IMG/VR virus record: IMGVR_UViG_3300045988_009603
Origin: a virus
Taxonomy: Duplodnaviria; Heunggongvirae; Uroviricota; Caudoviricetes
Reading direction: 5' to 3' (one strand)
Length of the DNA: 64,000 bases
Shown piece by piece: positions 2,795-44,881 of this stretch. The notes under the pieces were generated by a model. That model saw nothing but the letters and a program-made list of their open reading frames with translations, was not told the DNA's origin and ran no database searches. A program made the position numbers and the translations under genes. How positions within the stretch are numbered: position 1 is the first letter of the stretch; each line of letters opens with the position of its first letter.

Positions 2795-2870
2795 TGGAGA
2801 ATCCGAAGGGACTCGAACCCTTATAAACCTGTTTTGCAGACAGGCACATAGCCATTTCTGTCACGGATTC
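2795..2870 (-). tRNA. tRNA-Cys (anticodon GCA)
   Basis: anticodon stem-loop CCTGT-CTGCAAA-ACAGG; T-loop TTCGAGT; U73 discriminator; CCA encoded. Confidence 0.75.
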
Positions 2871-2874
2871 AAAT

Positions 2875-2967
2875 TGGAGGAAGATACCAGACTTGAACTG
2901 GTACACCGATTTCTCAGCTACTGGCAGTTTAGCAAACTGCTCCCTTACCTTTTAGGGTTAATCTTCC
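2875..2967 (-). tRNA. tRNA-Ser (anticodon GCU), long variable arm
   Basis: acceptor GGAAGAT/ATCTTCC; anticodon loop TGCTAAA; T-loop GTTCAAGTC; about 93 nt. Confidence 0.75.
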
Positions 2968-2968
2968 A

Positions 2969-3703
2969 TTATTTCTGTAATGCGTTCTTCATTTCTGGTG
3001 TTGCAATAGTGTCGATTACACCAGTTTTACAAGCATCATCAAACCAGTCTGGTAAGATACCTGCTAAGAACCCATTGATATTCGTTTTAAGGTACTCTGC
3101 AATAAGGGCAGTTTCTTCTTCAATCATCTGCACAACTTCATCTGCATAAGCTGTAATCTTCGAGATACCTTCATTAATCTTACTAACAGCTTGGTTAGCT
3201 AAATCAGAAATAGTATCAAGACCTTTATCAATAGCATCCTGTAAGTCGCTTAATACATCATTAACGCCATCTAGTGTACTGTTAATTGTATCCATAGCTT
3301 TTTGACCATACTCTGTAGCAACACCCATAATACCACTAAATGGTGTACAACCAACTTGCTCTCCTGCTGCACCCATAACATTAGAGTAGCCTTTTGCTAC
3401 CTGCATACGTGATGAAAACTCATCAATGGACTTTTGACCATAATCTGTCAGTGTCTTAGTAGTTGATGTAGTGCTTGTCAGACTCGTTGTAAAGCTATTA
3501 AGCAGAACTGTTGTAAGTCCAGCAGCAATAAGCTTATCCTTTATTGTGGGGTCTGTTACAGAGCTAATAGAGCTTACAAGTGATGTAGAGGCAGCTACGG
3601 TTCCACCTAGAACTGCTGCACCAGTAATAAGGGGATTAGAAAACCCTCTACCGGTTTTTAAGAGATTAAAAATCTCCTTACCTTGTTCTGTCATCTCTTT
3701 CAT
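2969..3703 (-). CDS. hypothetical protein embedded in tRNA cluster
   Basis: ORF track 2969..3766; internal start MKEMTEQ at 3703 preferred because upstream part overlaps tRNA-Phe; Thr/Ser-rich, no recognised domain. Confidence 0.5.
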   Translation of the reverse strand: MKEMTEQGKEIFNLLKTGRGFSNPLITGAAVLGGTVAASTSLVSSISSVTDPTIKDKLIAAGLTTVLLNSFTTSLTSTTSTTKTLTDYGQKSIDEFSSRMQVAKGYSNVMGAAGEQVGCTPFSGIMGVATEYGQKAMDTINSTLDGVNDVLSDLQDAIDKGLDTISDLANQAVSKINEGISKITAYADEVVQMIEEETALIAEYLKTNINGFLAGILPDWFDDACKTGVIDTIATPEMKNALQK

Positions 3704-3719
3704 TAAGCACCTTTGAAAT

Positions 3720-3795
3720 TGGTAGTCCAGTGGGATTTGAACCCTCTTCTCATGTTTTTCAGACACGCGCTTTAACCATATAAGCTACTTGGACT
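3720..3795 (-). tRNA. tRNA-Phe (anticodon GAA)
   Basis: anticodon loop CTGAAAA; T-loop TTCAAAT; A73; T-stem has one non-WC pair so boundaries +/-2. Confidence 0.6.
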
Positions 3796-3801
3796 ATAAA
3801 T

Positions 3802-3877
3802 TGGGGTGACCTACGGGATTTGAACCCGTATAGACCATGTTCACAGCATGGGTCATTACCATTTATGATAAGGCCAC
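3802..3877 (-). tRNA. tRNA-His (anticodon GUG)
   Basis: anticodon stem CCATG/CATGG, loop CTGTGAA; T-arm ACGGG-TTCAAAT-CCCGT. Confidence 0.8.
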
Positions 3878-3908
3878 ATTTAAGGACTCTCGTAAGAACC
3901 CTTAGAAG

Positions 3909-3984
3909 TGGCAGCGGCATAAGGATTTGAACCTTAATAAGACAGCTTCAGAGACTGCTGCATTGCCAGTTATGCTATACCGCT
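3909..3984 (-). tRNA. tRNA-Gln (anticodon CUG)
   Basis: standard cloverleaf, D-stem GCAT/ATGC, anticodon loop CTCTGAA. Confidence 0.65.
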
Positions 3985-3989
3985 AAATT

Positions 3990-4068
3990 TGGTACTCCAT
4001 ATCGGATTCGAACCGATACATAACACAGATTTTAAGTCTGGCCTCTCTGCCAATTGGAGTAATGGAGC
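3990..4068 (-). tRNA. tRNA with anticodon UAA (Leu isoacceptor by anticodon), short variable arm
   Basis: anticodon loop CTTAAAA; D-loop CAATTGGCAGA; A73; T-arm ATCGG-TTCGAAT-CCGAT. Confidence 0.5.
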
Positions 4069-4070
4069 AT

Positions 4071-4146
4071 TGGCGGGGGATGTTGGAATTGAACCAACTT
4101 CTTCGATTTCAAAGACCGAGGTTTTAACCTTGTAAACTAATCCCCT
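4071..4146 (-). tRNA. tRNA-Gln (anticodon UUG)
   Basis: anticodon stem TCGGT/ATCGA, loop CTTTGAA; T-arm GTTGG-TTCAATT-CCAAC. Confidence 0.6.
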
Positions 4147-4154
4147 TTAAATCT

Positions 4155-4712
4155 TTACTTCCTTAGTGGATGAATAAAGAATGCCAACATAACTCTTTCC
4201 CTTGAGAATGCTCTTTCTTCTGGGACAACACTTTTAAGTTTCCATCCAACATAAATTCTCCAGTAGAATTGTTTACCAAAGACTTTAATTGATGGGATAA
4301 AGGCGAATAACCCCCAAGCATTACTGTTCCACATTAGGAGATAACCTGTCTGATTATCTTCATGGTCAGAACTTACGTTGATATTACCTTTCCACTTAGT
4401 AACATCTTTTACATCTCTTCCTAACACATGGTAAGAGAAGTTATAAGCTTTGTTTCTCCAGAGCCATCCAACTCTCTGCAAATAGACACCAAGCTTACCA
4501 ATCTTTCTAATCTTAGCCCATCTTTTAACGTGACCTTCATCACCATCAATTGGGTTGTCATATGTCTCCATCCATCTGAATCCAAAAGGTAGATGTCCTT
4601 TCTTCTCACTATAGAATGGAACTACAAAAGGTGCTAAGATAACTGCTAAGATTGCTGCCAATGGGTCTAGCAAAGCTAGGAAAATCCATGAAGCATACTT
4701 CAAATATCTCAT
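4155..4712 (-). CDS. hypothetical membrane protein embedded in tRNA cluster
   Basis: 185 aa ORF; hydrophobic N-terminus IFLALLDPLAAILAVILAPFVVPF; Trp-rich. Confidence 0.5.
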   Translation of the reverse strand: MRYLKYASWIFLALLDPLAAILAVILAPFVVPFYSEKKGHLPFGFRWMETYDNPIDGDEGHVKRWAKIRKIGKLGVYLQRVGWLWRNKAYNFSYHVLGRDVKDVTKWKGNINVSSDHEDNQTGYLLMWNSNAWGLFAFIPSIKVFGKQFYWRIYVGWKLKSVVPEERAFSRERVMLAFFIHPLRK

Positions 4713-4731
4713 TTAAATAGCCTCTTTAAAT

Positions 4732-4807
4732 TGGCGCAGGATAAGGGATTCGAACCCCTATTAACAGCTTCGTAGACTGTTGCTCTATCCATTTGAACTA
4801 ATCCTGC
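4732..4807 (-). tRNA. tRNA-Arg (anticodon ACG)
   Basis: acceptor GCAGGAT/ATCCTGC; anticodon loop CTACGAA; T-loop TTCGAAT. Confidence 0.75.
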
Positions 4808-4812
4808 AAAAT

Positions 4813-4890
4813 TGGTGTTCCAAGACGGATTCGAACCGTCACTAGTACAAGGTTTGAGCTTGCATCCTCTGCCAATTGGGATACTGGAAC
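4813..4890 (-). tRNA. tRNA with anticodon CAA (Leu isoacceptor by anticodon), short variable arm
   Basis: anticodon stem GCAAG/CTTGT, loop CTCAAAC; D-loop CAATTGGCAGA; A73. Confidence 0.5.
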
Positions 4891-4891
4891 A

Positions 4892-4966
4892 TGGTACTCA
4901 CTAAAGGACTTGAACCTTTTTCTTCATCTTGTAAGGGTGATGTTTTACCATATAAACTAAGCGAGT
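4892..4966 (-). tRNA. tRNA-Val (anticodon UAC)
   Basis: anticodon loop CTTACAA; T-arm AAAGG-TTCAAGT-CCTTT; one C-A mismatch in anticodon stem. Confidence 0.6.
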
Positions 4967-5061
4967 ATGAAAGAGGTCTGAAGTTGTGCCGCTAACTCAA
5001 CTCCGTGGAATTTGTTACGGTCTTCAGTTGACACCAGCGGTCTTTCACTTGACCTCTGAAT
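4967..5061 (-). ncRNA. structured non-tRNA spacer (pseudoknot-like crossed helices)
   Basis: no T-loop motif; crossed complementarities CTGAAG/CTTCAG and GCCGCT/AGCGGT plus outer GAGGTC/GACCTC. Confidence 0.3.
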
Positions 5062-5138
5062 TGGTGCTGCTCACAGGACTCGAACCTGCATTTCCATCCT
5101 TACAAGGGATGTGTAATAGCCAATTATACGAAAGCAGC
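5062..5138 (-). tRNA. tRNA-Thr (anticodon UGU)
   Basis: anticodon stem CATCC/GGATG, loop CTTGTAA; T-arm GCAGG-TTCGAGT-CCTGT. Confidence 0.8.
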
Positions 5139-5139
5139 A

Positions 5140-5553
5140 TTAAACTTTTATGATACCAGCATGTACTTTTCTGTGACAGTTAGCGCACAAGACAATGCAC
5201 TTTCTGATTTCATCTTTTAATCTTTTTGTGGAGTATGAATAAAGTGATGCAGGATTCAAATCTTTCTGGGAAGGGTCTGTATGGTGTAAATCCAATGCAA
5301 CTGGTTCTTTCTCACCACATATATGACATTTGCATAAAGCTTTGTACCTTCTAGCTAGAGTCTTGTTATACTCTCTCTTGAAGTTACGAGTACTTTTAAT
5401 AGCCTCTTTCCTTTTATCATTTGCTTGATAACTCTTTGCATCACGAAGTCTTGCACAGTCTTTGCATTGACTTTGAAGACCATCTTTCTTGTTCTTATTC
5501 TTATGGAATAAGCTTTCATCTTTTGGTATTCTGCAAGTACTGCATATTTTCAT
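5140..5553 (-). CDS. HNH endonuclease embedded in tRNA cluster
   Basis: 137 aa; Cys-rich, LDLHHTDP...CANCHRKVH HNH motif. Confidence 0.75.
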   Translation of the reverse strand: MKICSTCRIPKDESLFHKNKNKKDGLQSQCKDCARLRDAKSYQANDKRKEAIKSTRNFKREYNKTLARRYKALCKCHICGEKEPVALDLHHTDPSQKDLNPASLYSYSTKRLKDEIRKCIVLCANCHRKVHAGIIKV

Positions 5554-5567
5554 ATCACACCTTAATT

Positions 5568-5642
5568 TGGAGCATCCAGAGGGAATCGAACCCTCAACCT
5601 CAGTTTGGAAGACTGTAATTTTCCCGTTTAAACTATGGATGC
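5568..5642 (-). tRNA. tRNA-Gly (anticodon UCC)
   Basis: acceptor GCATCCA/TGGATGC; anticodon loop CTTCCAA; T-loop TTCGATT. Confidence 0.7.
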
Positions 5643-5648
5643 ACTAAT

Positions 5649-5724
5649 TGGTGGAGTCACTGAGAATTGAACTCAGTTACCGAGTTTGCAAAACTCGAAT
5701 TTTAACCATATAAACTATGACCCC
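5649..5724 (-). tRNA. tRNA-Ala (anticodon UGC)
   Basis: anticodon stem CGAGT/ACTCG, loop TTTGCAA; G3-U70 pair in acceptor stem. Confidence 0.8.
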
Positions 5725-5730
5725 AATGTT

Positions 5731-5806
5731 TGGTACAGGTGGAGGGAATTGAACCCATCGTCTTACTGATTAAGAGTCAGCCGCATAACCATTTTGCTAC
5801 ACCTGC
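5731..5806 (-). tRNA. tRNA-Lys (anticodon CUU)
   Basis: anticodon loop CTCTTAA; paralogous to the UUU copy at 6957-7032; T-stem only GGG/CCC. Confidence 0.6.
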
Positions 5807-5813
5807 ATTAATT

Positions 5814-5891
5814 TGGTAGGAGACAAGGGATTCGAACCCTCAAACACCAACTTCTAAGGATGGTAGGTTTACCAATTACCGTCAATCTCCC
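5814..5891 (-). tRNA. tRNA with anticodon UAG (Leu isoacceptor by anticodon), short variable arm
   Basis: anticodon loop CTTAGAA (stem has U-U mismatch); T-arm GAGGG-TTCGAAT-CCCTT; D-loop TAATTGGTAAA. Confidence 0.45.
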
Positions 5892-5966
5892 ATTAAATCT
5901 TTTTAGAGAACTTCTAAGAACCTAAGCAACAAGGTTCCACAACAAGCTGTAATAACCTTAGAAGCC

Positions 5967-5990
5967 CTCTAAAAAGACCTAAATAGGTCT
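5967..5990 (-). terminator. internal terminator-like hairpin in tRNA operon spacer
   Basis: minus-strand AGACCUAUUUAGGUCU followed by U5. Confidence 0.45.
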
Positions 5991-6146
5991 TTGCATAGTC
6001 TTGTTTAATCCGGTGACTAGAACCTTTGGAGAGCTTGATATTATCTCTTCTCCGTGACACCTACTAGGTGCTTTATCAGTGTGTACGACAATACACGAGG
6101 GATACCAAAGCAACATCCGAATGAAGCTTGGCTTTAAATCTTATTA

Positions 6147-6236
6147 GGCGGTAAGTAAAGGAGTCGAACCCTCACCGTATCTCTACAGTGGCAACAGTTT
6201 TCAAGACTGTTTGGCTGCCATTAGCCGCTACCTACC
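6147..6236 (-). tRNA. tRNA-Ser (anticodon UGA), long variable arm
   Basis: anticodon stem ACAGT/ACTGT, loop CTTGAAA; about 90 nt; G73; 3' CC encoded, terminal A not. Confidence 0.7.
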
Positions 6237-6249
6237 CCTAATAAGACTT

Positions 6250-6332
6250 TGGCATGGGACGGAGGAGTTGAACCCCTTTGAAACGGTTTTGGAGGCCGTT
6301 GCTCATGCCTTAGAGTCTTAACATCGTCCCAC
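6250..6332 (-). tRNA. tRNA-Trp-like (anticodon CCA) with extra nucleotides between acceptor stem and D-stem
   Basis: anticodon arm ACGGC-CUCCAAA-ACCGU resembles E. coli tRNA-Trp; acceptor GTGGGAC/GTCCCAT; about 7 nt longer than canonical. Confidence 0.45.
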
Positions 6333-6474
6333 ACTATAATTCGAAGCTTACCGTATTTTCGCAACACTGTAAAGCCCCTTCTCAGATTATTTACATGTTC
6401 TGGAAAACATGAGATACAGACCACCTCCTTACACGGAGACCCGATAAGGTCGTCTAAGCAATCTGCTAACTATT

Positions 6475-6551
6475 TGGCACACCCTACAGGATTCGAACCT
6501 GTAACTAACGATTTAGAAGACCGTTGCTCTATCCAATTGAACTAAGGGTGC
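6475..6551 (-). tRNA. tRNA-Arg (anticodon UCU)
   Basis: canonical D-arm GTTC-AATTGGATA-GAGC; anticodon loop CTTCTAA. Confidence 0.8.
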
Positions 6552-6798
6552 ATTAATCTTTAAAGACTCTCTTAGAAAGCCCTTAAAGATGCCCACCTTA
6601 TTAATCATACCGTGGGCGAGTACGCCAAATTCTTTGATGAGGGATTGGAAGACCTCACTGGTGTTTAGCCTATCAAGCTACTGCCAGAAAAACATTGTCG
6701 TTTGCATTTATTTTAAATTTGCAAAATAGACGCTACGCAACGAAAACTAAGGTTACTATAAAGTGGTCACATGTTAATGTCAACAACTTTATTGAAAT

Positions 6799-6874
6799 TG
6801 GTACTGGTAGGTGGAATCGAACCACCGATGTTCCCTTATCAGGGGAGTGTTATAACCTTCTTAACTATACCAGC
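6799..6874 (-). tRNA. tRNA-Ile (anticodon GAU)
   Basis: anticodon loop CTGATAA; T-arm GGTGG-TTCGATT-CCACC. Confidence 0.8.
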
Positions 6875-6875
6875 T

Positions 6876-6952
6876 TGGAGGTTCAGATGGGAATCGAACC
6901 CACATTCATAGGGCTTATGAGACCCCTGCATTACCTTATCTGCGACTGAACC
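6876..6952 (-). tRNA. tRNA-Met (anticodon CAU; elongator Met or Ile2 not distinguishable)
   Basis: acceptor GGTTCAG/CTGAACC; anticodon loop CTCATAA. Confidence 0.7.
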
Positions 6953-6956
6953 ATAT

Positions 6957-7032
6957 TGGTAGAAGTGGAGGGATTCGAACCCATCGCCTGTCAGATTAAA
7001 AGTCTGCCGCATCACCATTCTGCTACACTTCC
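6957..7032 (-). tRNA. tRNA-Lys (anticodon UUU)
   Basis: anticodon loop CTTTTAA; same unusual T-stem as the CUU copy. Confidence 0.65.
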
Positions 7033-7179
7033 ATTAAATTATCTTTGTAGATAAGCTACCCAGACTTGCTTAAGGTCTGTAGCGATGTGCTTTGTTGGGT
7101 TTAAATCTAGAATTTACCCTTTCACCCTTTGTGGTCGCATACTCACAGGTAAGCTTAATAACTTATCTACAAAGATAAT

Positions 7180-7316
7180 TACCAGACCGTTGTTTATCAT
7201 CTTAAGTGCTACCATTACACCAACTCGACATCTGCCGAGTGAAGGAATCGAACCTTCGCCTTTTCTTTACCGGAGAAATAGATTGTTTAAGTTTTGCTGT
7301 AAACGGTCTTCTGTAA
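7180..7316 (-). ncRNA. tRNA-like element with permuted arm order, enclosed by a terminal inverted repeat
   Basis: minus strand reads terminal stem AGACCGUU, T-arm GAAGG-UUCGAUU-CCUUC, ACUCGGC, AGAU, GUCGAGU, D-arm-like GUGUAAUGGUAGCAC, closing AACGGUCU; no canonical 5'-to-3' cloverleaf. Confidence 0.3.
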
Positions 7317-7490
7317 ATTTGTTGAGCCAGACCAAGTTTTAAATTTTTTCAAAATTAAATTGGCTTGAAAATATCATACGTACTTGCTGAATTTGGTCTT
7401 CTGCTCCTTTAAAGAATACTCGTAAGAACTCTTTAAGGGAGGGGCTAAATAGCCCTCTCAAAACATCATCTTGAAATACTTATTATAATT

Positions 7491-7568
7491 TGGCGGTTAC
7501 GAAGGGATTTGAACCCTCATCATCTCCCGTGACAGGGGAGTATTTTAACCAGATTAAACTACATAACC
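7491..7568 (-). tRNA. tRNA-Asp (anticodon GUC)
   Basis: anticodon stem CTCCC/GGGAG, loop CTGTCAC; G73. Confidence 0.85.
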
Positions 7569-7574
7569 TTTATT

Positions 7575-7662
7575 TGGTGTGCCGTGTAGGAGTCGAACCT
7601 ACCGAGTCTCAATGACAAGGGATTTACAGTCCCCACCGCTACCATCTACGGGATAACGACAC
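7575..7662 (-). tRNA. tRNA-Tyr (anticodon GUA), long variable arm
   Basis: anticodon loop CTGTAAA; T-arm GTAGG-TTCGACT-CCTAC; about 88 nt. Confidence 0.8.
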
Positions 7663-7671
7663 ATTTAAATT

Positions 7672-7748
7672 TGGCGGTTAGTCAGGGATTCGAACCCTGT
7701 GCCATTCGCTTAACAGGCGACCGCACATACCTTATGTGCTTCCTAACC
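7672..7748 (-). tRNA. tRNA-Asn (anticodon GUU)
   Basis: D-stem GCAC/GTGC; anticodon loop CTGTTAA. Confidence 0.8.
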
Positions 7749-7825
7749 TTAATACATTGCCAGACCGTGTTTTTTCTTTTATCCGCAAAAAGTAGTTTGT
7801 TGCTGCATACGGTCTTCTGCAAAAT

Positions 7826-7902
7826 TGGAGGCGGGTGCAGGAGTCGAACCTGCCGATACCATGCTAATGAGACATGTGAGACGCCCTTTCTCTATACCCG
7901 CA
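7826..7902 (-). tRNA. tRNA with anticodon CAU (second Met-type; initiator or Ile2 possible)
   Basis: anticodon loop CTCATTA; T-arm GCAGG-TTCGACT-CCTGC; 1:72 mismatch. Confidence 0.55.
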
Positions 7903-7993
7903 ATTCTTAATGACCAGACCAAATATCTTCTTTGTCCGATTTATCTTCAGATGAATAAGATTAAGTTTGCTGCAATTGGTCTTCTGTCAAAAC

Positions 7994-8071
7994 TGGCGTT
8001 CCAGAAGGGATTTGAACCCTCAAATATCCACTTTGAAAGAGTGGTGACTTTACCGTTTTGTCTACTGGAAC
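7994..8071 (-). tRNA. tRNA-Glu (anticodon UUC)
   Basis: anticodon stem CCACT/AGTGG, loop CTTTCAA; acceptor GTTCCAG/CTGGAAC. Confidence 0.85.
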
Positions 8072-8078
8072 ATTAATT

Positions 8079-8155
8079 TGGTCTCTGTTGGAGGACTTGA
8101 ACCTCCGGCCTTACCGCCCCAAACGGAACGCTCTACCAAGCTGAGCTAAACAGAG
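8079..8155 (-). tRNA. tRNA-Pro (anticodon UGG)
   Basis: canonical D-arm GCTC-AGCTTGGTA-GAGC; anticodon loop TTTGGGG. Confidence 0.75.
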
Positions 8156-39109: not shown

Positions 39110-39453
39110 TTCTTATCTCTCTCAATCTTTTCACAAAATGTTTTAAGTTCTTCTTCAGTGACACCAACAACACTGTCACCAACGTTTAAATTTGTTCTAT
39201 AGAACATTGTAAAGTGGCCTTTACCAATAACTTCAAATGTTCCAGCCTTCTCAATCTCTGCTAAGGCTTCCATTCCAACATTACCGAAGAGTGAGTTTGT
39301 ATACTTTTTCCACTCATCAAGGAGTTCGGTCTTAACCTTATAAGTGCCTAATAGGGCACTGTTGAAAGAGATAATCATTATCTCACCTTTTCCGTAGCCA
39401 ATTTTACGGCGAGATTTATTCTGCTCGCCATTGACAATCACCTTGCCACCCAT
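39076..39453 (-). CDS. hypothetical protein
   Basis: ORF 39076..39534 trimmed to internal Met to limit overlap with nrdG. Confidence 0.35.
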   Translation of the reverse strand: MGGKVIVNGEQNKSRRKIGYGKGEIMIISFNSALLGTYKVKTELLDEWKKYTNSLFGNVGMEALAEIEKAGTFEVIGKGHFTMFYRTNLNVGDSVVGVTEEELKTFCEKIERDKKWESGTVLNQK

Positions 39454-39901
39454 ACTCTTTTCTCCAGAGGTTTTGGTTATCAGAACCACGATATGGTTTA
39501 ACTGTTGGTTTAGATGAATCATACTTACCATCAATCACCACGTCAACATATTTCATCACATCAAGGTGGATTTTTTCGTGTAACTGAAAACCTGTCCAAA
39601 GCCATATAGACTTTTCTGGATAAACAGTTTTAATACGCTTGCATATGTTGGTGACTTCTTGAATGTTTCTGTCATCCAGAGGCTCCCCACCAAGTATTGA
39701 CAGCCCACTGATAGCATTATCATCCATTAACTTAATAATGCCATAGAGGTTTGCATAAGTAAACTCTTTACCAGCATTAAATTTCCAAGACTCCCTGTTA
39801 AAGCAGCCTTCACAGTGATGTTTGCAGCCAGCTACGAAGAGGCTTACACGAACCCCTTCACCATTAGCTGTGTCAAATGGTCTAATCTCCATGTAATTCA
39901 T
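39416..39901 (-). CDS. nrdG: anaerobic ribonucleotide reductase activating enzyme (radical SAM)
   Basis: 161 aa; CKHHCEGC cluster, GGEP motif; collinear with E. coli NrdG. Confidence 0.8.
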   Translation of the reverse strand: MNYMEIRPFDTANGEGVRVSLFVAGCKHHCEGCFNRESWKFNAGKEFTYANLYGIIKLMDDNAISGLSILGGEPLDDRNIQEVTNICKRIKTVYPEKSIWLWTGFQLHEKIHLDVMKYVDVVIDGKYDSSKPTVKPYRGSDNQNLWRKEYGWQGDCQWRAE

Positions 39902-39936
39902 CTAGTTACCTCACCAATATTATTTAAGCCTTTTAC

Positions 39937-40332
39937 TCATTCAAACACCACCTGACAAGGAACTTGTTTAGTAATAAATTCTTCACAGTGTTCTTTAATG
40001 AAGTTTTGTAATGGCACACAGTCTTGTGCACAAGTCATTAGCATAATGTACTCTGGATTCATAATATTTTCAATGGTGTAGAAGACAACATTGTCAAATA
40101 ATTCATGACCGTCTTCTTCAGACCAAGTTCCAGTGACTATAGCTAATTTGTCAAGCAATTCATTAGGCAACGCTACACCATCTTCTACGGAATCACTTAG
40201 AACGTTGTCACCTATGTACAATGTGAAGACCGTATGAAATGTTGAGTATCTTACGTGATTCTTTTCACAAGAGCCACACTCTGAGGCGTAATCTTTAATC
40301 CACTCTAACTGTTTTTTGTTCAACTTAATCAT
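39937..40332 (-). CDS. hypothetical Cys-containing protein
   Basis: 131 aa ORF. Confidence 0.45.
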   Translation of the reverse strand: MIKLNKKQLEWIKDYASECGSCEKNHVRYSTFHTVFTLYIGDNVLSDSVEDGVALPNELLDKLAIVTGTWSEEDGHELFDNVVFYTIENIMNPEYIMLMTCAQDCVPLQNFIKEHCEEFITKQVPCQVVFE

Positions 40333-40544
40333 AATTTCACCTTAGTTGGTAATGCACTGAATGCTATAGCTAACCCTAAAAATGGTTTGAAGCATGACCA
40401 TAAATCCATTTGTCCATGATATGATAAACTCCATTGTGGGTCTGAAAAACCCCATACCATAACACTAACCCCAAAGAAGAAGATTGCTATGTATAGTATG
40501 GGTGCTAATACCCTTAAGAGTGTTGTCATTATTAATTCCACCAT
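40329..40544 (-). CDS. small membrane protein
   Basis: 71 aa, two hydrophobic segments. Confidence 0.4.
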   Translation of the reverse strand: MVELIMTTLLRVLAPILYIAIFFFGVSVMVWGFSDPQWSLSYHGQMDLWSCFKPFLGLAIAFSALPTKVKL

Positions 40545-40918
40545 ATAGTTTTACCATTATCACATGTGTAAAGATACTCTACAGAAGTTTGTGGGACAAG
40601 TATAGTGGTGTTCCCACTAAGTACACTCACAAAATAAGTAGCCTCACGATGTTGATGAGTTTTTACACAATGGTTTGCCTCCATCCATATCACAGTTTTG
40701 TATGAATAGAACACCGCCAAGACACAAAGTGTAATAACCCCAACTATCATGGCAAACTCAGGCAAAAAATCTGACTGTATGATGTCTCTAAATCTCATTA
40801 TTCCAAGAATAAATAAGATTATCAGACATACAATCCCACAAACTGCTACATAAAGCCACAAGTCCATAATGCAACTCCAAAGAAAAAGGTGATGTAAGCC
40901 TATCAAGAACCACATCAC
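40532..40918 (-). CDS. membrane protein
   Basis: 128 aa, multiple hydrophobic helices. Confidence 0.45.
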   Translation of the reverse strand: MMWFLIGLHHLFLWSCIMDLWLYVAVCGIVCLIILFILGIMRFRDIIQSDFLPEFAMIVGVITLCVLAVFYSYKTVIWMEANHCVKTHQHREATYFVSVLSGNTTILVPQTSVEYLYTCDNGKTIWWN

Positions 40919-40939
40919 CTTGTCAAGTTTTACATAAGG

Positions 40940-41548
40940 TTATTTTTTCTTACAATTGTCAAAATGATATCGAGTCATGTTACCAGCACCACCAGTCATA
41001 CCACAATGAGGGCAAGTTTTCTTTTTCTTTGGCTTTTTTCCGGCTTCTGACATCTTCTTCCTTGTTTCTATAGACCTTTTACAACCTTTTGATTTTGTAT
41101 TGCCTATTTGAGATTCTCCTAACCGTCTTCGATGTTCTTCAGTGAAAACCCTACCTTTATTCACAATAGATAGAGCTTTCGAGTTCAAAGCCCTTACCTT
41201 TTCATAGTCTCTGGATGATATTTTCCTATCTAGGCCATCATGGGCTAACCTGTTCCATGCAAACCATAACTTATGATTGTTTGGATACATCTTAACCAGT
41301 AATTTATGAGCTATATAATGCTCTCTAGGTGTAAGTAAAGCAATATTATCTCCACTAATTTTATCGCCACCTAGACATACTGGTGTGATATGGTGTCTTT
41401 CATAACCCTTACCTTGACATTTGTAGTATGTAAGAGGCACACCCCTTTCAGAATGTGCCTTCTTAATAATTGCATTATATATTAGTTCGTAATTCATTTG
41501 TATGCTACATAGAAACCCTATCCTTAATTTCTGCCATCTTAGCGTCAT
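40940..41548 (-). CDS. HNH homing endonuclease with NUMOD-like repeats
   Basis: ERHHITPVCLGGDKISGDNIALLTPREHYIAH; repeated basic K/R helix motifs; overlaps 3' end of nrdD. Confidence 0.7.
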   Translation of the reverse strand: MTLRWQKLRIGFLCSIQMNYELIYNAIIKKAHSERGVPLTYYKCQGKGYERHHITPVCLGGDKISGDNIALLTPREHYIAHKLLVKMYPNNHKLWFAWNRLAHDGLDRKISSRDYEKVRALNSKALSIVNKGRVFTEEHRRRLGESQIGNTKSKGCKRSIETRKKMSEAGKKPKKKKTCPHCGMTGGAGNMTRYHFDNCKKK

Positions 41549-42473
41549 TCATTCGAGACTGACCTTTAATTTTTGTGAATGACAAGTACCCGCACACCCT
41601 GTTAATCACAGAGATGTCATGTGAATGGCAAACCTCACATTCTTCAACATCAGCCTTTGGTCTGTTACCACAATGTTCACAGATTGCTAAGTCAAAGTTA
41701 AGTCCCTGATAGAAGCCTTTCAACATCCCTCTTGTAATACAACTTTTAAGTGCTGGTAAGTTTTCTGGGTTAGCTACCCTTACATACTGGATTCTGCCAC
41801 CTCTACAAATATGGAAGAATGGTTCTTCTAAGTCCTGCTTCTCAAATGGTGAGATATCTGCTGCAACATTCATATGAAAACTGTTTGTAAAGTATTCCTT
41901 ATCAGAAACACCTTTGATAACGCCAAACATATCTCTGAACTGTTTTAGTTGAGTCCCACAAAGTGATTCTGCTGGAGTACCATATACCGCATATAAGAAG
42001 CCATCTTCATTCTTAAACTCTTCAGTTTTCATGTTAATGTATGCCAGAACATCGTATGCAAAACTACAGCTTCCAACTTCATGAAGTCGTTTACCCTCAG
42101 CAAGAACAGATAACTCATCAAGCGCAGTAACACCAAAAGAAGCTGTGAAAGACTTCACAATATCCCAGCCAACCTTGTCAGTAGGTTTCTTAGTCCCTTT
42201 GTACAGACCACCTTGTGTGAATGCAAGAGGGTTAGAGCTTGCTGGCATATTAGCAATCATTTCGTAGCGTTTCTTGTGGAAGCTGCGAATCATCTCTAGG
42301 TACTTATCAAGCTCTTTCCAGAAATCTAAGCCATTCTCTTTAGAATACTGGTAAATCATTGGTAAGTTCAAAGATACAGCACCAATGTTAGCACGACCTA
42401 CATAAAACTCTTCACCATCTTCGTTATGGTATGGTGATAAAAACGCTCTACACTTGTTGTTCAGGTAAGTTCG
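41505..42473 (-). CDS. nrdD: anaerobic ribonucleotide reductase, C-terminal exon region
   Basis: glycyl-radical motif RVCGY, Zn-ribbon CEHCGN...CEVC; upstream in-frame region contains NIGAVSLNLP. Confidence 0.75.
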   Translation of the reverse strand, partial: RTYLNNKCRAFLSPYHNEDGEEFYVGRANIGAVSLNLPMIYQYSKENGLDFWKELDKYLEMIRSFHKKRYEMIANMPASSNPLAFTQGGLYKGTKKPTDKVGWDIVKSFTASFGVTALDELSVLAEGKRLHEVGSCSFAYDVLAYINMKTEEFKNEDGFLYAVYGTPAESLCGTQLKQFRDMFGVIKGVSDKEYFTNSFHMNVAADISPFEKQDLEEPFFHICRGGRIQYVRVANPENLPALKSCITRGMLKGFYQGLNFDLAICEHCGNRPKADVEECEVCHSHDISVINRVCGYLSFTKIKGQSRMNDAKMAEIKDRVSM

Positions 42474-43215
42474 CTACGCTTACCCCGCTTTATTCAAGCT
42501 GCTTACTGTCACCAGTAAGTCCAGACTATATCTTCTACTTATTTCTAAGTAGCGTACCATTTCGAGTCGCTTGACCCTACACCGCTACATTCATCACGGT
42601 TAGTCGTTTGGCATTTAGATGTACTCAAATTCATGTTCAAAGTTATTATATTCTTTTACACCCTTCAGTATTGAAGAGATAGTCTTGCGATTATACCCAA
42701 GTATCTTGGATAACTCTCGTATCGAGTTCGCAACAATAACTTCTTTTGTTACTTTGTGTGTAGCCTTCACAGCATATGAACGCTTACAAAACTTGTAGCA
42801 ACCATTCTCATAACCTTCTTTAACATTCTCAGAATGAGTTCCCCATTCTAAGTTAGAAGCATGGTTATTCAGTTTGTTGTCATCTTTGTGTTTTACAATT
42901 GGAAGATTGTTCGGGTTAGGTACATATTTCTCAGCAACTAACCTATGAACATACATGTCACGATTCTTCTTACCGTAAAACCTCACTTTCATATACCCAG
43001 TGTTGGATTTCCACTGCTTAAGTTCTACACCATTTTTCCTAAAGACTCTTCCATCTTCAGTAACATGATAATTTGGCATGTAATACTCCTATGTTATATA
43101 GTTTCTTACATCGTACATCATTTAGCACAGGATTGTCTACATCTGTAGAGTTTCCCTGTTTAGGCACGTTTTAGATGAGCTATAGAGCTTGTTAACCCAT
43201 CGGTGAAATTACCTT
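42460..43215 (-). other. group I intron-like insertion in nrdD (boundaries approximate)
   Basis: separates N- and C-terminal NrdD ORFs; contains HNH ORF; 3' region has P7-like GACUA...UAGUCUGG and a P9-like hairpin. Confidence 0.5.
42615..43079 (-). CDS. intron-encoded HNH homing endonuclease
   Basis: 154 aa; HKDDNKLNNHASNLEWGTHSEN. Confidence 0.75.
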   Translation of the reverse strand: MPNYHVTEDGRVFRKNGVELKQWKSNTGYMKVRFYGKKNRDMYVHRLVAEKYVPNPNNLPIVKHKDDNKLNNHASNLEWGTHSENVKEGYENGCYKFCKRSYAVKATHKVTKEVIVANSIRELSKILGYNRKTISSILKGVKEYNNFEHEFEYI

Positions 43216-44391
43216 GCCAGAACGCTCAAAAGCCTCTGCTACAGCACCATGACCAGATACACTTAAGAAATCTGGATACATAGCTTTAGAGCAACACTCT
43301 ATAGCTTTTTCAAACAACCTTGCTTGGCATACATCAAGCTTATGTCTTGTCTCTTCATAGATATACACAAGTTTAGGGAACACCACAGGTTTTTTGCTTT
43401 TACCTTGCCCATTCATTCTTACATTAAGAATTGTATTAGCAATCATAAACTGAAGACGGTTATCTTCATTGTGCATATCTGGTTCCAGCAAACCAAATGT
43501 CAGAGTAGTAAATGCAAAATCACCGCGACTGCAAGGAACAGTGTTAAGTTTCATTTCAAGAGATTGGAAACCCTGTGTTAACTCATTCTGTAGTTGTTCC
43601 ATTACGTAATTATAGTGTTGCTCTTTAGGGATTCCGTACTCTTCAGCTTTCTCTGAATGGTACACTAAAGACTTCTTAGCATACGGTACAAGCACCTTAT
43701 CAATCTCTGCTAAAGTAAATCCACCAAATTGCTGTGCAGTTGCTGAAAGAACTACATCACCAATAACCTGTAAGGCTGACAGCACAGACTTTGGTTCACA
43801 GTATTCAATGCCAGACATTTCAAAGCCACCTTTTAGTACTTTACCAATGTCAAACAGGCAACAGTTGATACCACCAAAAATTAGGTCTCTTAAGTCATGG
43901 ATGTAGATAAATCCTTTTTCAATGGCTTCAAGTTCCTCTGGTGTTAAATGGTACTGTTTAAAGATTTCTTTAGTCAGGTAACCACGAATAATTGAACCTT
44001 TTGTAGAAATTAAACTGCTGTCAAAGTTAGCATTTTCACGGTCACCTAAGAAGAGTGTGTCTTTAGTCTTCTGGTAAAGCTCATCCCAATTTTGAGCAAC
44101 CTCTTTACGGTAATTTCTATATGTTGAGTAAGACTCATAAATCTCGTGATTTACTTCTGCCAAAGCACCCTCAACAATGCTGTGAATATCGTTTACTGAG
44201 ATGAGCAAATTATTCTGCTTAGTGGACTTTACCAGAATCCTCATAAATGCTGATTCAAGAGCTTGGGTAACATCTGGTGGCAGTTCTTTATATCCAACCC
44301 TGTTAGCTGACTTAGTTACTGCTGCTAAAACTTTTTTGATATCCGGTTCTTCAAGTGAGCCATTCTTTTTAATAATTTGTACTTTGTTCAT
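43192..44391 (-). CDS. nrdD: anaerobic ribonucleotide reductase, N-terminal exon region (3' end reads into intron)
   Basis: ATP-cone-like N-terminus VQIIKKNGSLEEPDIKKVLAAV; 399 aa ORF. Confidence 0.7.
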   Translation of the reverse strand: MNKVQIIKKNGSLEEPDIKKVLAAVTKSANRVGYKELPPDVTQALESAFMRILVKSTKQNNLLISVNDIHSIVEGALAEVNHEIYESYSTYRNYRKEVAQNWDELYQKTKDTLFLGDRENANFDSSLISTKGSIIRGYLTKEIFKQYHLTPEELEAIEKGFIYIHDLRDLIFGGINCCLFDIGKVLKGGFEMSGIEYCEPKSVLSALQVIGDVVLSATAQQFGGFTLAEIDKVLVPYAKKSLVYHSEKAEEYGIPKEQHYNYVMEQLQNELTQGFQSLEMKLNTVPCSRGDFAFTTLTFGLLEPDMHNEDNRLQFMIANTILNVRMNGQGKSKKPVVFPKLVYIYEETRHKLDVCQARLFEKAIECCSKAMYPDFLSVSGHGAVAEAFERSGKVISPMG

Positions 44392-44410
44392 TATTGCCCC
44401 TTTACATGCT

Positions 44411-44431
44411 AAAAAGGTCTCCGAAGAGACC
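44411..44431 (-). terminator. rho-independent terminator
   Basis: minus-strand GGUCUC-UUCG-GAGACC followed by U5. Confidence 0.55.
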
Positions 44432-44439
44432 CTTTCATT

Positions 44440-44646
44440 TTAAATCTTTTTAGAAAACTTCGAAAAGAGTTCTCTTAGTTTTTCAGTGATACCTAACTGT
44501 ATTTCTAATATTTCAAAGATAACCCATAGTAACATGGCTCCGAACAACGAACCTTGTTCAAAATCAGTAAATAGGTTAACAACAAGCATACCAATCACAA
44601 TAACTGGTGCATCAACAACCAAACCTTCCCAAAGGCGTTTAAGCAT
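44440..44646 (-). CDS. small membrane protein
   Basis: 68 aa, hydrophobic. Confidence 0.4.
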   Translation of the reverse strand: MLKRLWEGLVVDAPVIVIGMLVVNLFTDFEQGSLFGAMLLWVIFEILEIQLGITEKLRELFSKFSKKI

Positions 44647-44881
44647 TATTCACCTCTGCCATGAAATTCTGTAGCGTTCCAACAGGTTTTAGGTTTTGAC
44701 CGTCAGTTTTCATGATGAATGGCATCTGACGAACTGGCATCTGTGCAATATCCATCAGGTCTGACAGCTCATAATCCTGCCCTAACATTCTCACAACATG
44801 GTCAATACCACGAGCTTTCGCAAAATTCTTTGCAGTCTCACACTGAGGGCATCCAGTTTTGGAGTAAATTACATAAGTCAT
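44639..44881 (-). CDS. glutaredoxin/NrdH-like redoxin
   Basis: 80 aa; CPQC active site after beta1. Confidence 0.7.
   Translation of the reverse strand: MTYVIYSKTGCPQCETAKNFAKARGIDHVVRMLGQDYELSDLMDIAQMPVRQMPFIMKTDGQNLKPVGTLQNFMAEVNNA

Follow-up and report, generated by a model that had tools for sequence, protein, structure and literature searches.

A predicted td-like group I intron and a free-standing homing endonuclease cassette in and just after nrdD of a Felix O1-like phage

The interrupted nrdD gene and its junction

The window analysed here is a 64,000-nucleotide (nt) stretch of the IMG/VR virus record IMGVR_UViG_3300045988_009603, and the subject is its anaerobic ribonucleotide reductase gene nrdD, which is split by an insert carrying an HNH endonuclease gene and is followed by a second endonuclease gene (Table 1). 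Across 3.1 kb the region is 92–95% identical in nucleotides to Felix O1-like phages (Felixounavirus, Ounavirinae), and the window is assigned to a phage of this group. A preliminary description, made from the letters alone, had recognised an N-terminal NrdD open reading frame (ORF) with an ATP-cone and a C-terminal one with a glycyl-radical motif. Profile searches upheld both: the ORF 44391..43192 matched the ATP-cone (E 3.8e-12) and positions 1–250 of the Pfam profile NRDD, and the frame ending at 41505 matched NRDD positions 264–560 together with the Gly_radical domain; RVCGY, the glycyl-radical motif, is present in this frame, as are the cysteines of the Zn ribbon.

The 3′ end of exon 1 reads ...CCG AUG GGU, the final U being the predicted 5′ splice-site nucleotide, with a UAA directly after it; the first 7 nt of exon 2, UGUAGAG, make up one strand of the P10 helix. 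Joining 43195 to 42452 (GGU|UGU) gives ...SPMG|CRAFL... and a 714-aa NrdD which, aligned to the uninterrupted NrdD of phage warpig, is colinear and 99% identical over residues 1–714, and this places the junction. The insertion is real, and the gap first estimated at about 750 bp is exactly 742 nt (43194..42453). The intron-less allele of warpig (L001) is contiguous across the junction, ...CCGATGGGT|TGCAGAGCC..., and intron-less sister alleles read ...CCGATGGGT|TGYAGAGC.... For a 600-nt probe of the joined exons, numerous Felixounaviruses gave a single unbroken match, among them wV8, warpig, heid and also FO1a, the last of which has an empty site; joining at Gly399|Cys400 leaves an intact 714-codon ORF in 25 of the 25 Felixounavirus alleles examined.

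Exon 2 had been thought to resume at NIGAVSLNLP, which proved incorrect: it starts with the TGT of Cys400 (42452), 20 codons further upstream. Its frame is open from that motif back to a TAG at 42476..42474 and reads ...K CRAFLSPYHNEDGEEFYVGRANIGAVS, and neither ATG, GTG nor TTG occurs in it between this stop and a TTG at 42371 (codon 427). As translation of exon 2 could start only past Cys400, this residue is translatable only after splicing. Cys400 aligns with Cys290 of T4 NrdD, the active-site cysteine, which is located at the finger-loop tip; the codon boundary that the insert occupies is therefore the one just before the catalytic residue. Independently of the intron, nrdD is mosaic, as the part of exon 1 coding for residues 200–399 (43195–43794) has about 87% protein identity to most Felixounavirus alleles and 99% to allele L019, while identity to warpig is 99% throughout.

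Table 1. Features of the nrdD locus in the window (all on the minus strand; helix strands given 5′ to 3′ in RNA letters).
Feature	Coordinates	Strand	Description
nrdD exon 1	43195..44391	-	399 codons; ATP-cone and N-terminal half of NrdD
Group I intron (predicted)	42453..43194	-	742 nt, td-like (IA2-type), without P2; starts UAA, ends with omega-G 42453
P1	43174..43201	-	exon GAUGGGU (43201..43195) with internal guide GCUCAUC (43180..43174); U.G wobble at splice site
P10 guide	43187..43181	-	CUCUAUA, 7 bp with exon 2 UGUAGAG
P3 5′ strand and P4-P5-P4′ domain	43127..43168	-	CGUGCC (43168..43163); ACAGGG / UCUAC-AGAU-GUAGA / UCCUGU
P6/P6a	42611..43126	-	GC...GC; GAUGUAC 43119..43113 / GUACAUC 42624..42618; endonuclease ORF in loop
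Intron HNH endonuclease gene	42615..43079	-	154 aa, I-HmuI family; AGGAG Shine-Dalgarno 7 nt upstream
Intron 3′ domain	42453..42610	-	J6/7, P7, P7.1, P7.2, P3′, P8, P9, P9.1, P9.2, tail UGAACAACAAG
P7	42605..42601 / 42528..42524	-	GACUA/UAGUC; homology with T4 td intron
P3′	42558..42553	-	GGUACG; in intron 3′ domain
P9.2 hairpin	42484..42464	-	GGUAAG-CGUAGCGAA-CUUACC; homology with T4 td intron
nrdD exon 2	41505..42452	-	315 codons and TAG; first codon UGU = Cys400
Intron-linked exon 2 tract	42399..42450	-	+3 to +54; nine near-fixed differences
Cassette-linked nrdD 3′ tract	41524..41593	-	19–88 nt upstream of stop codon end
Endonuclease cassette	40937..41504	-	about 570 bp; homology with cassette-less genomes stops at 41506, resumes at 40936
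Free-standing HNH endonuclease gene	40940..41497	-	185 aa; colicin-type HNH and NUMOD3; ATG 7 nt past nrdD stop

Structure and covariation of the insert

The helices P1, P10, P3–P9, P7.1, P7.2, P9.1 and P9.2 were assigned by homology with the td intron of phage T4, with which the insert aligns helix for helix. Over its 3′ 160 nt the insert shares about 71% identity with the td intron, and the 3′ tail of the latter, UGAACAUAAUG, is near-identical to that of the window. The IA2 subgroup of the Michel-Westhof classification is reportedly marked by two additional hairpins separating P7 from P3′, namely P7.1 and P7.2, and by P9.1/P9.2 extensions, all four of which are present here. Both introns share P1, P3–P9, P7.1/P7.2 and P9.1/P9.2 and have an ORF looped out of P6. 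The td intron (IA2) differs in its host gene (td), in possessing a P2 hairpin, which the window intron lacks, and in its ORF, which is of the GIY-YIG type (I-TevI) and not HNH. The P7-like pairing GACUA/UAGUC of the preliminary description is P7 itself, and its P9-like hairpin is real, being more exactly P9.2. In the window, the 3′ strand of P6a overlaps the final three codons of the endonuclease ORF (GAG UAC AUC). Unbiased minimum free energy and centroid folds of the single 5′ and 3′ domain sequences recovered P1, P4, P5, P7, P7.1, P7.2, P8, P9, P9.1 and P9.2.

Covariation was assessed in a structural alignment of ten introns, comprising nrdD-site introns from Felixounavirus, F100, ECGD1, phita32 and IMG/VR contigs of about 42 kb (three forms), plus T4 td. 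The ORFs were trimmed, the sequences were divided into helix and loop fields that a script checked to reproduce the originals, and padding with N kept the register in MAFFT; a plain MAFFT alignment of the cores misaligned P5, P6, P8 and P9.1 and was replaced by the padded one. Standard pairs fill 97.9% of the 792 cells in 14 helices, a value biased upward by the register having been set by hand to the proposed structure, and 58 of the 95 pairs carry compensatory changes on both sides, which none of 500 shuffles equalled. In a control with the 3′ partners slid by 1–3 columns, pairing was 30–42%. Compensatory pairs are found in P3 (5 of 6), P6a (9 of 13), P7.1 (4 of 4), P7.2 (5 of 6), P8 (8 of 11), P9 (5 of 7) and P9.2 (6 of 7), and P1, P4 and P5 are paired in 100% of cells. 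The U.G pair at the splice site and the terminal G (omega-G) are each present in all ten introns.

Besides the bias just named, several results count against the assignment. About six independent lineages contribute to the covariation; P7 is invariant across the alignment and hence uninformative in this respect; P10 is weaker in some relatives, with 78.6% of cells paired (5 of its 7 pairs being compensatory). The folding energies, with z-scores of about -1.3, are not significantly below those of shuffles, and only the identity of the recovered hairpins is used as evidence. In the whole window, a search with Rfam at the gathering threshold returned tRNAs only and no intron match. A permissive scan gave an Intron_gpI (RF00028) hit of 35.4 bits on the P7–P9 side (42682..42502), below the threshold of 50 bits, and a second piece of 17.0 bits over P4–P6 (43159..43085), with the ORF lying between the two pieces. 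The covariance-model search thus failed on the window copy and succeeded on its natural ORF-less alleles, which differ from the non-ORF intron of the window in 7–10 of 316 nt and score 55.1 (L019), 54.8 (L002) and 53.6 bits (L016); a distant 279-nt homolog (L045) scores 55.0 bits. The failure of the window copy is attributed to the 465-nt ORF occupying the P6 loop, since the ORF-less alleles pass. On the combined ground of covariation, the Rfam scores of the ORF-less alleles and the exactly colinear junction with intron-less alleles, the insert is classified as a T4-td-like (IA2-type) group I intron, and the intron-like reading of the preliminary description stands.

Endonuclease genes, allelic states and exon footprints

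The HNH ORF noted earlier inside the gap was likewise borne out. Its product matches Pfam HNH_3 (E 2.7e-10, 40.2 bits against a cutoff of 24.8), PHROG 59 (5e-45) and the structure of I-HmuI, PDB 1U3E (E 1.3e-10), in which residues 3–140 of 154 align with 12–158 of 174; at the C-terminus a NUMOD1-like helix-turn-helix is sub-threshold (18.9 against a cutoff of 22.8). By these matches the ORF is identified as a full-length HNH endonuclease of the I-HmuI family. I-HmuI and I-BasI, whose genes lie within the DNA polymerase introns of SPO1 and Bastille, and gp210 of PhiPA3 belong by sequence to the same family with the same domain order, and are encoded in phage group I introns; the window enzyme differs from them in target gene, host range and the presence of Lys at the position of Asp74. 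Catalytic His and metal-binding Asn/Asp roles in I-HmuI were reportedly described by Shen et al. 2004. His64 and Asn85 of the window protein align with His75 and Asn96 of I-HmuI. Two observations count against this part of the interpretation: Lys63 occupies the position aligned with Asp74, and a sigma-70 scan of 39300..44800 found no ORF-specific promoter above chance (18 hits against 16.4 expected). The enzyme is probably catalytically competent, short of certainty because of the Lys63 replacement.

The allelic survey covered 60 evenly spaced records out of 237 matching and returned 32 empty sites, 18 inserts of about 742 nt and nine of 316 nt. The 316-nt form is the same intron minus 426 nt, an in-frame deletion which leaves ATG CCA | AAT AAC ... 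TAA and takes away the P6 loop only. In nine full-length Felixounavirus copies the non-coding intron has a mean identity of 98.2%, compared with 93.2% for the ORF, so the non-coding flanks of about 277 nt are conserved more than the ORF itself. These values bear on the possibility that the element is a decayed group I intron that no longer splices, leaving nrdD a pseudogene tolerated because aerobic NrdAB suffices. Such decay would suit a conditionally dispensable nrdD, the sub-threshold Rfam score of the window copy and the one endonuclease metal-ligand position unlike that of I-HmuI. It is nonetheless improbable: both exons are intact in 12 of 12 intron-containing alleles, the ORF is intact in nine of nine full Felixounavirus alleles with a ratio of non-synonymous to synonymous polymorphism (pN/pS) of 0.07, i.e., under strong purifying selection, and the changes in the highly conserved ribozyme core are compensatory rather than disruptive, with the Rfam result already explained by the ORF in P6.

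The group of contigs of about 42 kb offers 5 occupied alleles and 32 empty ones; between these, linkage to the intron is seen at exon positions -1, +3 and +6 alone, the nucleotides that form the U.G pair of P1 and the P10 helix. Occupied alleles always have GGU, whereas empty ones use any Gly codon. This bears on a second alternative, namely that the gene is split without splicing, the insert being merely a homing endonuclease gene and NrdD two assembling polypeptides, comparable to NrdA/mobE of Aeromonas phage Aeh1. Relatives are indeed annotated with two separate nrdD coding sequences, published accounts mention no more than a "split gene" (PMC4837284), and a precedent for a functional split ribonucleotide reductase is cited in PMC3653736. 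We give this alternative still less credence than decay, as the conserved non-coding flanks form a covarying group I core which the ORF-less version keeps and which passes Rfam, positions -1, +3 and +6 change with the presence of the intron in the manner that P1/P10 pairing demands, and unspliced exon 2, having no start before codon 427, would lose Cys400 and 26 further conserved residues. An intein or programmed translational bypass joining the halves at the protein or ribosome level was rejected on reading frames and can be dismissed, for although inteins are common in phage ribonucleotide reductase genes (PMC3653736), a UAA stands directly after exon 1, the inner ORF lies in another frame with its own Shine-Dalgarno sequence and ATG, a Pfam search of the window proteins gave no intein domains, and the insert far exceeds known bypass gaps.

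For the group I intron, 12 Felixounavirus alleles that contain it and 13 that lack it were compared in search of a footprint in the exons. The near-fixed differences are confined to exon 2 positions +3, 12, 18, 26, 33, 39, 48, 51 and 54, and no intron-linked sites were found across 300 nt of exon 1. Over +1 to +60, divergence is 0.19–0.20 between the groups, compared with about 0.05 within the intron-containing and 0.06–0.10 within the intron-less alleles; outside this stretch divergence between the groups is the same as within them. In one of the intron-containing alleles, L014, the exon 2 tract is chimeric. The +3 to +54 tract is read as a one-sided footprint of either co-conversion or the endonuclease target. 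Homing is known to co-convert exon sequence at the flanks (PMC3428280, PMC3943268), and I-HmuI-type enzymes, including I-HmuI, I-BasI and gp210, nick one strand of exon 2 near the insertion site (PMC3428280), in agreement with the exon 2-only footprint. Given this tract and the published nicking, we infer that homing would start from the exon 2 side. The intron-less alleles L017, L041, L064 and L065 already have the intron-type TGTAGAGC where exon 2 begins, and may represent either precise intron loss or recipients pre-adapted for P10 pairing.

The second HNH/NUMOD gene of the preliminary description is also real and free-standing, but its supposed overlap with nrdD is not. The nrdD gene ends ...TCT ATG TAG (41507..41505) and the ATG of the downstream gene is at 41497; the start at 41548 given earlier is a longest-ORF artefact, as allele L008 has an in-frame TAA directly before the 41497 ATG and the JH2 record annotates the downstream start. 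The product matches PHROG 655 (4.9e-56), NUMOD3, Col-Pyo DNase and the HNH of colicin E9. At 40936, where homology with cassette-less genomes resumes, ATGTAA is repeated, and the adjoining nrdD 3′ tract holds 23 cassette-linked positions, with about 80% identity compared with about 94% for the whole gene. The gene is present in the window, warpig, JH2 and 4 of 21 further Felixounavirus loci, independently of the intron, and is interpreted as a homing endonuclease cassette in its own right, free-standing and separate. Frameshifts interrupt the gene in L009, near codon 19, and in warpig, after codon 155; these copies are decaying, in line with the homing-cycle model. Between nrdD and nrdG, positions 40485–40880, with the ORF 40532..40918 (PHROG 8826, function not known, predicted membrane-like), have no detectable homology to the matching stretch of about 150 nt in cassette-less relatives and are regarded as a further replacement region.

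The genes around nrdD form a nucleotide-metabolism module lying entirely on the minus strand (nrdA, nrdB, glutaredoxin, nrdD, nrdG). Elsewhere in the window, at 2798–8155, 24 tRNA genes are clustered on the minus strand, which is typical of Felix O1-like phages.

Related introns, a proposed homing cycle and its meaning

In at least four further groups of phages, a related intron is found at this Gly|Cys site. For ECGD1 (Justusliebigvirus), phita32 and A141 (Vequintavirus-like), Vibrio phage F100 and the IMG/VR contigs of about 42 kb, the insertion point (..MG|CR..) is identical and the ribozyme cores are homologous, and the introns of phita32 and F100 have a homologous HNH ORF in P6, as in the window. 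The host NrdD proteins of these introns are only 29–55% identical, and the guide sequences, P3, P6, P8 and P9.x differ from those of the window through compensatory changes. The 777/778-nt form among the 42-kb contigs (L058, L073) has a far more divergent HNH ORF, the end of which reaches into P7. The ECGD1 record already annotates nrdD as a joined coding sequence. In F100 (L005 550–4684), nrdD is annotated as four pieces with two HNH-containing interruptions, the second at the Gly|Cys site, and shows an additional coding-sequence break at 4303/4304 without intervening sequence. One contig of about 42 kb contains another group I intron (L045:6966–7291, Rfam 71.2 bits), some 3.5 kb downstream of nrdD. 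The GenBank records GU169904 ("Staphylococcus phage SA1") and MG065668/MG065672 ("Campylobacter phage A126/A141") carry a Felixounavirus-like or Vequintavirus-like nrdD, and look like wrong names or hosts, or mixed assemblies.

The layout of the locus resembles that of T4 nrdD (sunY, I-TevII), where the same gene has an intron and a free-standing HNH gene, mobC, abutting its stop. A shared insertion site was ruled out, as the intron of T4 interrupts the gene about 120 codons further upstream, near residue 280/281 in the window NrdD numbering, and its ORF is annotated as GIY-YIG. The downstream gene is like mobC in layout. The mobE-type genes of T4, as HNH genes between conserved nucleotide-metabolism genes, polymorphic among relatives and flanked by a co-conversion tract, also recall the window cassette in layout; mobE lies between nrdA and nrdB, whereas the cassette follows nrdD. 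One relative's record labels the downstream endonuclease "MobE-like".

Overall, it is very probable that nrdD has been colonised by two independent homing elements, the group I intron and the endonuclease cassette, for which we infer splicing, nicking, cleavage position and homing. The pre-mRNA would fold as a P1–P10 ribozyme in which GAUGGGU at the end of exon 1 is bound by the internal guide GCUCAUC; free guanosine would attack after the wobble-paired U (43195), CUCUAUA would align the exon 2 start UGUAGAG in P10, and the exons would be ligated after omega-G (42453), giving ...SPMG-CRAFL... and the full 714-aa NrdD. By analogy with I-HmuI, I-BasI and PhiPA3 gp210, the 154-aa endonuclease may nick the intron-less nrdD of co-infecting relatives on the exon 2 side of the insertion site and near to it, after which recombinational repair would give the recipient a copy of the intron along with as much as about 54 nt of exon 2. 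In other strains, the 426-nt in-frame ORF deletion would have left the 316-nt intron still foldable. The HNH/NUMOD3 cassette of about 570 bp would spread likewise, dragging along the last 90 nt or so of nrdD.

The intron-encoded HNH nickase of PhiPA3 gives this phage an advantage over PhiKZ and mediates phage competition (PMC11620839). A comparable role here is conceivable, if rather unlikely: the exon 2 tract (+12 to +54), a constant companion of the intron, might be more than a passive result of co-conversion and serve as an immunity and marker-exclusion determinant, the endonuclease nicking nrdD of co-infecting Felixounaviruses downstream of the insertion site and the diverged tract shielding its own genome. 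I-HmuI/I-HmuII in SPO1/SP82 and gp210 in PhiPA3 would be analogues. If true, the intron would be a weapon between phages used for biocontrol of Salmonella and E. coli, and the Gly|Cys site a hotspot traded among at least five phage lineages.

Homing endonuclease genes splitting nrdD have been described in UAB_Phi87, HB-2014, JH2 and the FSL phages (PMC4837284, citing PMC3728262), and introns were not reported in the Felix O1 paper (PMC3185647). Our literature search, within the library that could be searched, found no paper that calls the insert a group I intron or tests its splicing, only "split nrdD" (PMC4837284). In about 90 public Felixounavirus genomes, which file nrdD as two genes plus a "homing endonuclease", nrdD is most likely one spliced gene, and the annotation would be corrected accordingly. 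Neither element is conceptually new, both being selfish elements of an ordinary and familiar kind. Their interest lies in one gene bearing two independent endonuclease elements, each with a sharp one-sided exon footprint, and in the use of the same active-site codon boundary by related introns of several unrelated phage groups. Moreover, a single genus in which empty, full and ORF-deleted states occur together offers a well-populated natural system for the homing cycle, and this cycle, along with possible intron-mediated competition among therapeutic phages, would be testable by simple crosses.

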